The notes under the pieces were generated by a model. That model did not search any database. It saw only the letters and a program-made list of their open reading frames with translations, and was not told where the DNA came from. Shown one piece after another: positions 17,051-62,298 of a stretch of 64,000 nt of DNA; the first letter of the stretch is position 1; every line of letters starts with the position of its first letter. The DNA comes from Eledone cirrhosa (Eukaryota): positions 29,264,001 through 29,328,000 of the forward strand of contig OZ024743.1 in assembly GCA_964016885.1 (NCBI GenBank). The letters run 5' to 3'. The position numbers were made by a program, and so were the translations under genes.

Positions 17051-18179
17051 CATGATAGATATTACTGGTGTAATTAGGAGGGGTGACACAAAGGGTTTAT
17101 GTATGTAATAATAAGGTTACCTAATAATGTCGTAATGCGGAAATTCCCGCAGGAGTTAAACAAATCTAGGTCAGTGGGTAGTCTACCCACGAGGTAGACT
17201 TCTTAGATCTGTGAAAATGGAAGATTACAGCTCACAACAGCGAAAGGCAAAACATTCGATTAAAATATGTGGTGGTGCTTCTGAGAGAAGAGCTAAAGAA
17301 CAGTGATAGCTTAAAGTAAATTCATTGTAAATATTACATGTCTGCATATAAAACATACCCTATATTTAGAAATTGATTAATATAAAATTCTTATATTAAT
17401 AATATTCAGTATTAATTGTTTTAAATTTCCAAGCCCTATTTCCCCCTCTCTCTCTCTCTCTCTCTCTTTTCCCCTCCTCCCACATATATCTATTAATTTC
17501 CCAGATATAGTTTGCGAATATATATTGCAAAACATTGCAAACATTTATTAAATTATCAGTTAGTTGGTCTTCGTGTTTTGTTTAACAGTGGTATTTATGT
17601 CGGATATCATATATTCTACATTATATTGAAACATAATTAGGTTTGTTGCTTATGGATTTTAGGTTTATGCTCAAAGTAATAAATATAAAGACAGAAATAG
17701 AAAATACTGTTTAACAAAATATTTATATAGAAAGCTATTCCATACATAAACAAATACTCTTAAAACTAATTATGTGCATCACAAATATATACAGATCCAC
17801 GAAAAAATAGTGTTAATTTGCACAAAGATGAATACCAGCTTATATTAGATGTATAATTCATGTCACTATTCAGGTGAATTTAAGTAGGAATAGTTCAGTA
17901 TCGTGTTTAGAAATCAATTTGAGCACATAAATAATCAGTATATATTCCAACATTAAATCTACTTGACAGAGATTGCATGAAATATCTGAGACCGCCAGTA
18001 GACAACTGATGAGGAACACCCCCCGCGTTGTTGCTTTCTTCTTATTCTCATTCTATTCTTAAGCCTAACTTAACTAGCAACTACACAGCCAATCCTATTC
18101 TCCATATATTATATTATATATTATATATATATATACAATGATATTAAATAAATGGAAACTATATTTATAAAACCATATT

Positions 18180-18240
18180 TATTCTATTATATATATTTCA
18201 AGGGTACCAAAACTTTGGTACGCCCTCATCAGATAAAATA
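18180..18240 (-). ncRNA. type I minimal hammerhead ribozyme motif
   Basis: Minus strand reads TATTTTAT-CTGATGA-GGGCGTACCAAAGTTTTGGTACCCTT-GAAA-TATATATA-ATAGAATA. It has an 8-bp stem I, an intact core, a palindromic stem III and an AUA cleavage triplet. Confidence 0.75.
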
Positions 18241-18381
18241 CAAAGTTTGTTTTATAAATATTGACATACCCAGGAGGAAGATCGTAACGGTTCAAGTTTT
18301 TCCTGGATAGTCTAAACAGGAAAAACCTGAACCGTTAAAATCTTCTTCCTGTATATGTCAATATTTATAAAACAAACTTTG

Positions 18382-18442
18382 TATTTTATCTGATGAGGGC
18401 GTACCAAAATTTTGGTACCCTTGAAATAATTATAATAGAATA
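18382..18442 (+). ncRNA. type I minimal hammerhead ribozyme motif
   Basis: Reads TATTTTAT-CTGATGA(18390)-stem II-GAAA(18423)-TAATTATA-ATAGAATA. It has an 8-bp stem I with one G-U pair and a palindromic ATAATTAT stem III. Predicted cleavage is after 18434. Confidence 0.78.
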
Positions 18443-18608
18443 AATATGGTTTTATAAATATAGTTTCCATTTATTTAATATATCATTGTATATTATACCC
18501 CAGAAAACTTGTCGAGTGCTTCGAAGCAGTTATACACATTTATATATAAGTTTATCCCGGGTGACCACAGTAAGTAAGGTACTCAATACATAGCAGAGTA
18601 TACATACT

Positions 18609-58924: not shown

Positions 58925-59343
58925 TGTCTCTTTCTCTTAATTTCGAGTATATTTTTTTTGACCGGCCACCTTCCTGGTGGCAAGGTTGTAAAAGAAAAGA
59001 AATTGTCATCCCTTGAATCACAAGAATGTTTTGCAAATTTTGAAGGTGCCAGCTATCGCAGCCATTTGTAGACTATGAATTTCAGAGCTGCGCTTTTTGT
59101 CCGCAAATCCAAGTTCAGCCATACTTTGGTCCCAGCGGGTTGGTATATAACCCGTAGCTCCAATAATGATAGGTATGAAGCTAAAGGTGTATCTTGGATA
59201 CTGGATTTGTAAACTCCTCATCAATGATCCGTAGATGTCCTCCTTCTCCTGCATTTTTCTGACAACGTTTACAACAAGTGGGCAGCTGATCTCCACAACA
59301 GAAGACGTTTTCAATGTGTGGTCCCAAACAACAATATCAGGAT
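58925..59343 (-). mobile_element. RLE-type (NeSL/R4-like) non-LTR retrotransposon 3' end
   Basis: Minus strand reads PDIVVWDHTLKTSSVVEISCP..KEDIY..IPIIIGATG..ICKTFL* (PD-(D/E)xK endonuclease), with an open frame and a short 3' UTR. Confidence 0.85.
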
Positions 59344-60028: not shown

Positions 60029-60265
60029 TGCATGCATGCATGCATGTATGTATGTATGTATGTATGTATGTATGTATGTATGTATGTATGTATGTATGTA
60101 TGTATGTATGTATCTATCTATATATGTATGAATGTATGTATGAATGTCTGTATGTATATATGTTTGTAGGTGTGTATAGTCTACTGGATTTATTATTTTA
60201 TAACTTCTCACCAAGAGAGGGAGAGGGTTTCTAATATACAAAGTATATTTATTATATATAAATAA

Positions 60266-60330
<65 letters not shown>

Positions 60331-60384
60331 TATATAATGCTTCGATTAGTACAAAACAATCTCTTTCATTCTTTAAGTTAATCA

Positions 60385-60480
60385 ACAAGCATTTCCCTAG
60401 TTCCGATAAATACAGTAAAAATCTGAACTCTAAAACTATTAGACTATAATACTCCACGGCACCAAAACTTGAATCATACA
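60385..60480 (+). mobile_element. Penelope-like ORF relic (RT to GIY-YIG linker)
   Basis: FFKLINKHFPSSDKYSKNLNSKTIRL*YSTAPKL, cf. the PLE motif FL-x-LI-x-KHFP..KIFN..VK-x-SYS. Confidence 0.7.
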
Positions 60481-60595
60481 AAAAACTTAACTTAAAGCAA
60501 TTAAACAACACTACAAAACAAAATATTTTGATAACAGATGAGCATAACGTAATATCGGCCTCCCAACCACTAAATAGGAGACAGGTATTACACAA

Positions 60596-60668
60596 CCTGA
60601 TGAGTCCGATAATCTGGATATATCCTGTTAATTGGATGTCTAAAAGTACGGGCGAAACCATGGTAGAG
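60596..60668 (+). ncRNA. type I hammerhead motif, copy 1 (stem I weak)
   Basis: CTGATGA(60597)-GTCCG..CGGGC-GAAAC-CATG-GTA(60663-65)-GAG. The 5' strand of stem I is diverged or truncated. Confidence 0.65.
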
Positions 60669-61253
60669 ATATAATTACGGTATGTACACATTTCTTCTAA
60701 GTTTGAATTTACACCTAATTGTGTATGGTTGACAGTATATTTAGTCAGTTTCTACATGCTGTTGAAATGTTGGATAAATACTCTATCGGGGCCACCGCGA
60801 AGAGGCCGCTTTCGGTTATTTGTCGGAAATTTCTTCATAGGAGCCTTTATTCTTATAGCTTGGTCTAATTGATTTTTTATATGGTTAATTATGCTAATTG
60901 GGAGAGCAAATGGTATATATTTTATCTAATAATTCTAAGGACATGATTTATGATATATTGCTCTGATTATTTAATTTATTAATTCTTCATTGAGCCACAA
61001 CGTGGCCGGTTGCAAAACATATATATCTATGACTTTATGTATATGTAAATCTTTATATTTATACAATCTGCCGTTAGGTTGAGATGAAATTGGGCGATAT
61101 TGGGCTGCGCTTTCTAGCAACAAGCCTACCCGCCGTAAGCATCTAATCACATTATTTCTAACTTGACCACTGCCATGTCACGATTCTTAGCCATTTTTGA
61201 ATCTATCTTTGGCGCGATCACTTTGGAAAATTAAATGTCTAATTTTGAGTTCA

Positions 61254-61328
61254 CTCCTGATGAGTCCGTCACTCTGGATATATCCTGTTAATTGGATGTC
61301 TAAAAATACGGACGAAACCATGGTAGAG
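61254..61328 (+). ncRNA. type I hammerhead motif, copy 2
   Basis: CTC-CTGATGA(61257)-GTCCGT..ACGGAC-GAAAC-CATG-GTA(61323-25)-GAG. It has an intact core, a 6-bp stem II base, a palindromic ACCATGGT stem III and a 3-bp stem I. Confidence 0.8.
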
Positions 61329-61533
61329 ATATAATTAAGGTATGTACACATTTCTTCTAAGTTTGAATTTTCACCTAATTGTGTATGGTTGACAGTATAT
61401 TTAGTCAGTTTCTACATGCTGTTGAAATGTTGGATAAATACTCTATCGGGGCCACCGCGAATAGGCCGCTTTCGGTTATTTGTCGAAAATTTCTTCATAG
61501 GAGCCTTTATTCTTATAGCTTTGTCTAATCGAT

Positions 61534-62298
61534 ACGAGACCTGGGCATAGACATGAGCGATGATGCATCTTTTTCTTCACACATCATGAAGGTGGCGACA
61601 ACATGTAGACGATTCGCTGGCTGGATCTTGAGGACTTTCCTTACAAGAGATCGAGACACCATGTTGACACTGTGGAAGACTTTTGTCCTAAGCCGCCTGG
61701 ACTACTGCTCCCAGCTGTGGTCACCCCATAGTGTCAAACTAACCACGGGGCTTGAGGCAATCCAGCGAAGCTACACCAAGAGGATTGCCAAGATGAGGGA
61801 GACAAGCTACTGGGAGAGGCTAAAGGAACTGAACCTCTACTCCTTGGAGCGAAGACGGGAGAGATACGCTGTGATCTACATGTGGAAAATCCTGGAGGGA
61901 CTAGCACCAAACTTTGGCATTGGGAGCTGGACCAACCGTCGAACAGGACGTCACTGTGTGGTGCCAAAGGTCCCGTCTTCCACATCTAGAATAAGGAGCA
62001 GGTATTGCAATAGCCAGGGATTCAAGGGCCCTCAACTCTTCAACAGGCTGCCGAGGCATCTGCGAGACTTGCATGACGTGGAGGTGGATGTCTTTAAGAA
62101 ACATCTCGACACCTTGTTATCCCGGATCCCGGATGAGCCCACAGCAAGTCACGAGGGAAACCTAAGGGCAGCAGCAACAAACTCCCTCCTACACCAGTGG
62201 CCAACCTATACAGGCTGGATATAAAATGTGTAGCAACAAGGGCGGTGCCCCAGCATGGCCTCAGCCGGATGGCTGAAGCAGGTAAAAGAGTAAAAGAG
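61534..62298 (+). mobile_element. young 5'-truncated CR1-group LINE
   Basis: Uninterrupted frame RDLGIDMSDDASFSSHI..SRLDYCSQLWSP..LEAIQR..YWERLKELNLYSLERRRERY, stop at 62224. The 3' UTR has a hairpin and a (GTAAAAGA)2 tail. Confidence 0.92.

Follow-up and report, generated by a model that had tools for sequence, protein, structure and literature searches.

Two hammerhead ribozyme cores lie close together near the end of a 64,000-nt window of the Eledone cirrhosa genome (contig OZ024743.1, positions 29,264,001 to 29,328,000; positions below are those of this whole stretch), and the locus raises the question of whether they delimit a mobile unit and, if so, how such a unit is copied. The two cores were confirmed, with CTGATGA at 60597 and 61257 and a spacing of exactly 660 nt, as was the gap-free direct repeat in which the preliminary description had placed them: 60596 to 60873 was identical at 267 of 278 bases to the sequence 660 nt downstream. 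With strict limits, the repeat ended at 60869/61529 (264 of 274 identical), and it stops at 274 nt because a young LINE begins at 61527. The predicted cuts were also recovered as positions, with GAAACCATGGTA ending at 60665 and 61325. The predicted cut-to-cut monomer between them (60666 to 61325, plus strand) has a length of 660 nt and a G+C content of 35% and is without a conserved long ORF.

The insertion is composite. It is bounded on the left by a (TA)n-rich tract recognized from the sequence (60242 to 60334, no strand assigned), (TA)n being the target of the family, and this is followed by a fragment of a Hydra-clade Penelope-like ORF from a separate family (60335 to 60597, plus strand), corresponding to the region after the RT core and before the CxCX5C linker. 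The relic runs into the unit via a CC microhomology and replaces the 5′ strand of stem I of hammerhead core 1 (60597 to 60665, plus strand), which consists of CUGAUGA, a long stem II, GAAA, stem III, and GUA. The second unit (61256 to 61529, plus strand) is partial, covering unit positions 1 to 273, and is truncated ahead of end site A, described below. An AAT microhomology joins it to the 5′-truncated LINE (61527 to 62290, plus strand, right boundary approximate), which from 61527 on is 98 to 100% identical to 39 other copies, with an RT ORF seen in the longer ones. We take the piece present here to be the end of that ORF plus a 3′ tail. The LINE removed the 3′ end of the unit at this locus, and the 9 kb past the window did not contain the lost 3′ part of copy 2. 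The unit is 2.2 to 3.4% diverged from its nearest relatives, and the locus is an ordinary decayed and damaged copy of a dispersed repeat. In a double hammerhead, the topology would place site 1 under cleavage by core 2, and release of a monomer would then not be structurally barred at the locus.

Hammerhead architecture and covariation

The long stem II hairpin and palindromic stem III described earlier were both present. Stem II was made up of 5 bp, an internal loop, and a distal hairpin, while stem III comprised 2 bp, with the palindrome able to form a self-duplex of 8 bp at −11.2 kcal/mol. Hammerhead 2 (61240 to 61337, plus strand) is complete, with distal and proximal stem I, the core, stem II with its distal hairpin, palindromic stem III, and a predicted cut after 61325. 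Stem I had been described as broken in copy 1 and only 3 bp long in copy 2; the former was correct, with one of three proximal pairs kept and the 5′ strand lost, but in copy 2 the 3 proximal bp are accompanied by a 5-bp distal helix (61240 to 61244 with 61333 to 61337). The core CUGANGA/GAAA/NUH, three helices, and an open stem I identify a type I hammerhead, complete in copy 2 and without stem I in copy 1. The term “minimal” did not apply: the minimal hammerhead of PLE pLTRs is reported to be without helix III and to have an extra nucleotide between A9 and 10.1 (PMC4209133), whereas a 2-bp helix III with a palindromic loop and a direct A9-G10.1 step were found here, as in the canonical metazoan type.

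The Rfam scan proposed as a check gave no hammerhead match at E values up to 10, likely because of the long stem II. In the folding predictions, the catalytic fold (−10.6 kcal/mol) lay above the minimum-energy structure (−21.5 kcal/mol), and RNAalifold retrieved stem II but missed the three-way junction. Core position 7 was U in 71 and A in 21 of 92 distinct hammerheads, varying by subfamily, while at most 3 deviated at any remaining core position, a conservation partly enforced by the search motif. The base after GUA was G in 92/92 and no jump scars were seen, which is again due in part to the search design.

The stem covariation that had been suggested as a further check was examined in 42 of the 92 hammerheads, hand-picked to span the subfamilies, and compensatory changes were found, with 93.9% of cells paired in a structure drawn from the same sequences. 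Double-change cells numbered 34 compared with 8.7 after shuffling, a level reached in 0 of 500 shuffles, although relatedness among the sequences inflates such cell counts; the double changes involved 4 pairs, a number not above shuffle (reached in 259/500). The consensus fold of the whole monomer contained long helices with few double changes outside the hammerhead, and folding z-scores were modest at −0.5 to −3.4 (five monomers).

A dispersed family of non-coding tandem units

Exact matches to a 19-mer of the core numbered 1,957 in the genome, compared with 0 for the reversed control, showing that the hammerhead cores are not due to chance. A search for the family itself gave 3,856 candidates, of which 40 were scored. 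The 42 cut-to-cut monomers obtained from sampled loci were 641 to 710 nt long and 72 to 99% identical, and the claim that the unit is non-coding held across them, with the longest ATG-initiated ORF having a median of 47 aa (maximum, 107) and no long ORF shared. G+C content was 35 to 36% in five monomers. At least two hammerheads were present in 14/102 sampled arrays and one in the other 88, and the period of the unit was closed, with no LTR organization. The monomer had been called relatively long; at 660 nt it is inside the published range of 51 to 972 bp for retrozyme units (Li et al. 2026, bioRxiv 10.64898/2026.07.22.740005), yet it exceeds the 170- to 400-nt circles shown experimentally.

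With non-coding tandem units that each carry a type I hammerhead, no LTR organization, and a G+C content below 45 to 50%, the repeat is an additional family of the known class of non-LTR retrozymes, a new member for which there is good genomic evidence of Penelope-driven mobility. The open literature, with subscription journals, Repbase, and Dfam outside the scope of the search, contained no description of the 660-nt family and no count of the two-arm rule presented below; relatives could be present among the families that Craig 2021 and Li 2026 list. Matches of unit positions 421 to 467 elsewhere at 75 to 80% were rejected as low-complexity noise. The unit insertions L072 and L073, which are nearly identical and lie 4 Mb from each other on the same contig, probably reflect a segmental duplication.

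Insertion anatomy

Copies of the family terminated against (TA)n at one of two AT-rich sites and had random 5′ ends. End site A is at unit position 362 (60953 to 60958 in the window, plus strand), and end site B, the tail, is at unit positions 464 to 467 (61050 to 61063, plus strand), 105 nt past A. We infer that reverse transcription starts at A. The sequence of end A plus TA had 1,181 exact genome matches (control, 0), and the first 90 of these places, all from one contig, yielded 85 distinct ends that were scored. The insertion ends sit inside (TA)n, where a target-site duplication is not readable. The 5′ side consisted of an inverted arm in 43/85, (TA)n in 20/85, and other DNA in 22/85. 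Thirty-nine insertions stopped before the cut site, 2 ended no more than 10 nt from it, and 44 crossed it, so no pile-up was seen at the cleavage site among the insertions at risk of stopping there (2/46 within 10 nt). All of the 21/85 insertions longer than 660 nt re-entered the unit; 5/85 exceeded 953 nt, four of which were poorly measured.

A more specific rule was observed for the head-to-head pairs. Of 103 such pairs, 71 were scorable with arm-end classes assigned by BLAST (29 had an unclassifiable end and 3 were at the edge of the sampled sequence), and 70 of these combined A with B, compared with one A+A and no B+B. A-anchored loci are overrepresented in this sample, but such enrichment would not by itself make B the partner.

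Partial tandems, an inverted 5′ arm, a tail on one arm, and a microsatellite target are together the hallmarks of mobilization by PLEs. Hydra-clade and other endonuclease-positive PLEs resemble the family in their partial tandems, 5′ truncation, head-to-head inverted arm, one-arm tail, (TA)n targets, and hammerhead near the 3′ end (PMC8557442, PMC3846280). The differences are that the unit has no ORF and that its tail is 105 nt rather than 30 to 40 bp on one inverted arm; moreover, the one-arm tail is nearly strict here (70/71), whereas in the accessible text of these papers it is optional or frequent. For Poseidon of Anolis in vitro (Frangieh et al. 2024, PMC11167929), the tail was tied to two internal RT starts and both target strands were cut and extended at an AT-rich target, as the family's anatomy would suggest; however, the Poseidon starts are described as neither homologous to the target nor different between strands, whereas ends of the 660-nt family occur at AT microhomologies and the arms use different starts.

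The upstream Penelope relic and candidate drivers

A PLE protein relic had been noted about 120 bp upstream on the same strand. The relic is real, but it directly abuts the first core. Identity was 93 to 95% with 29 other copies, in which the CxCX5C linker and a GIY-YIG domain follow. The RWK, DKT, and CxCX5C motifs and C-terminal GIY-YIG found in these copies match Hydra-clade features (Craig 2021, PMC8557442), and the family also has its own 3′ UTR hammerhead and a (TA)n target. Assignment to Naiad was rejected, the endonuclease being C-terminal. Pfam searches gave no RT match for the relic family and, apart from a weak GIY-YIG match, were uninformative for the relic, the Hydra homologues, and the LINE piece. 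The best named homologue of the neighboring PLE protein was from Argonauta, at 37%, which agrees with a cephalopod host without proving it. In the relic family (L035 and related loci), a type I hammerhead with a stem II extension of ∼90 nt lies ∼500 nt after the ORF. Two (TA)n-bounded ends were found in this family as well (14 and 11 of 29, with 4 others), and 6/6 scorable inverted pairs mixed both ends, one of them imperfectly.

The relic was not the parent of the unit. Its family has a different hammerhead, and 0/29 copies lead into the unit within 1.5 kb. The preliminary interpretation as a PLE-dependent unit of the retrozyme kind is thus upheld in part: the non-coding, hammerhead-bearing tandem unit with a PLE footprint stands, while the relic as parent and the minimal hammerhead do not. 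PLE-coding sequence was present in 1/98 non-inverted 5′ flanks, the window's own, making the junction a one-off, and no recurrent unit-Hydra chimera that could name the driver was found in these flanks besides the window locus. The relic (3.8%) and unit (2.2 to 3.4%) are of similar age, which would allow a template switch.

A second, young Hydra family (L272 to L300) was also rejected as the parent, with no sequence common to the unit at 29 loci. Its endonuclease domains are 97 to 99% identical, many copies have open frames of at least 750 aa, and the 3′ regions have in common more than 1 kb of microsatellite with mixed TA and TG repeats; the 1.5 kb after the ORF end revealed no hammerhead core common to the copies. 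Two Hydra families (29 loci each) were free of unit sequence, and it is the shared footprint that suggests a driver of this type. Hydra-type endonuclease domains gave 58,784 first-look candidates genome-wide, two families of which were followed downstream, and this load is very large for a clade described from few families.

Arrays and the nature of the template

Units within an array differed by a median of 3.4% (direct) or 3.2% (inverted) in an analysis that kept 195/227 loci after duplicate sampling of the same places was removed; the difference between loci was ∼7.3%. Rare alleles accounted for 667/806 within-array differences (96 loci), and no polarization was found between first and last units at these loci (189 versus 202, P = 0.77). 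Private variants were common to inverted arms about as often as to tandem units (21 versus 15). Tandem units and inverted arms of an insertion are thereby shown to derive from one template. Termination between positions 362 and 120 rose from 37/85 in lap one to 16/21 in lap two (P = 0.013), although the interval was picked after the data had been seen and linear templates of limited length would give the same rise. Read-through, re-entry into the unit, and a single template fit reverse transcription round a circle; an uncut linear RNA could mimic part of this.

The repeat is very probably non-autonomous and mobilized by a PLE, and, granted this, a circular template is likely. Overall, we consider it probable that the thousands of (TA)n-associated copies make up a non-autonomous retrozyme, for which a Penelope-like enzyme uses a predicted circular RNA as template. 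Transcription would take place at partial-tandem loci that hold two hammerheads, and these would cleave at GUA, probably by pairing through the ACCAUGGU palindrome into a double hammerhead, to release the monomer. A host RtcB-type ligase, as shown for other retrozymes, may then close it. A PLE protein, most likely of the Hydra clade, would cut both (TA)n strands, and the two DNA ends would be primed at sites A and B with the help of AU microhomology. The RT would copy the circle for a random length, sometimes for more than one lap, rebuilding two-hammerhead loci, and the cDNAs would be linked head to head or connected to the target. At the window locus, the 5′ end came to lie against the Hydra ORF fragment through a template switch or a later deletion, and the 3′ end was lost to the younger LINE. 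More tentatively, a PLE dimer may act on one 660-nt circle, with the two DNA ends primed one each at the dedicated sites 105 nt apart, in a rolling-circle form of target-primed reverse transcription, of which the family would be a fossil record. If true, this would provide one mechanism for PLE tails, inverted arms, and partial tandems, as well as a minimal protein-free template for testing. Two counterpoints come from in vitro work: in the only PLE so studied, cleavage was dispensable and the main template was uncut RNA (PMC11167929), and 1/9 Xenopus dimers were cleaved (Li 2026).

The chief alternative, which we judge unlikely, is that the template of a non-autonomous PLE passenger is uncut linear RNA read through partial-tandem loci, or that template jumps rebuild the passenger, with the hammerhead serving another step and no circle being formed. 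The insertions do read through intact hammerheads, few exceed about 900 to 1,000 nt, and the PLE insertion studied in vitro used unprocessed RNA (PMC11167929). However, aged tandem sources should transmit polarized unit differences, of which none were seen (96 loci, limited power), and a linear template could not yield daughters longer than their parents, whereas arrays of two to three units exist. The period also persists across subfamilies 28% apart, and the invariant G after GUA without scars, allowing for the search design, argues against template jumps.

Two further explanations fare less well than the circular template. An autonomous PLE whose pLTR or 3′ repeat is the unit, with the loci being its 5′-truncated ends, would suit the exactly PLE-like insertion anatomy, and only two families among the many Hydra candidates were followed downstream; nevertheless, this appears improbable, as no shared body adjoined the junction in the 5′ flanks of the sampled arrays (102 and 85), the window's own was the single PLE-coding flank, and copies longer than one period all re-enter the unit. 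The possibility, raised at the outset, that the unit occurs only as an LTR of full-length PLEs was checked, and the unit was not found there, nor does it lie as pLTRs around an ORF with RT and GIY-YIG. A dispersed repeat that grew by local tandem duplication or as a satellite, without any ribozyme role, is highly improbable, although one array (L018) with two near-identical middle units (1 difference in ∼650 nt) might speak for it. Compensatory changes in the hammerhead count against it, and the combination of fixed 3′ and random 5′ ends, fractional unit numbers, and paired arms that end one at A and the other at B indicates that the arrays were born at insertion, so that local duplication is largely refuted by the end structure.

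Relation to known elements and further hammerhead-like sequences

The predicted circular-RNA family resembles metazoan non-LTR retrozymes in having tandem units that are non-coding and each carry a single type I hammerhead, as well as in its low G+C content, thousands of copies, weak palindromic stem III, and coexistence with PLEs (PMC7229834; Li 2026). It differs in forming dispersed partial tandems of 0.1 to 3 units rather than long arrays, in a bipartite long stem II missed by Rfam, in (TA)n targeting with two fixed ends and no pLTR parent found, and in a circle that is predicted and longer than the 170- to 400-nt examples. Chlamys non-autonomous elements such as MRC1 are likewise non-coding PLE passengers, with pLTRs and head-to-tail copies; unlike the family, they are described as being without canonical hammerheads and as sharing 3′ sequence with an autonomous family, no such sharing being found here for two Hydra families (PMC8557442). 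In the accessible text of published work, PLE mobilization of animal retrozymes was inferred from co-occurrence and pLTR similarity. The hundreds of insertions examined here show the footprint of a PLE enzyme on the ORF-less unit itself, and the fact that the two arms almost always use different starts places a quantitative constraint on the unsolved mechanism of PLE integration. As young Hydra copies with long open frames are present in the genome, an in vitro test of circular versus linear templates is feasible.

Additional hammerhead-like sequences were observed. Window positions 18126 to 18497 form a 375-nt inverted repeat, 92% complementary, with head-to-head hammerhead-like cores at 18232 (minus strand) and 18390 (plus strand); similar motifs occur in L003, L005, and L038, and the repeat probably represents another PLE-type family. 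L033, L041, and L042 are further hammerhead families that have a long stem but differ in stem III. Elsewhere in the window, positions 59018 to 59338 (minus strand), which gave no Pfam match, hold a fragment similar to the nuclease region at the C terminus of a different non-LTR element.
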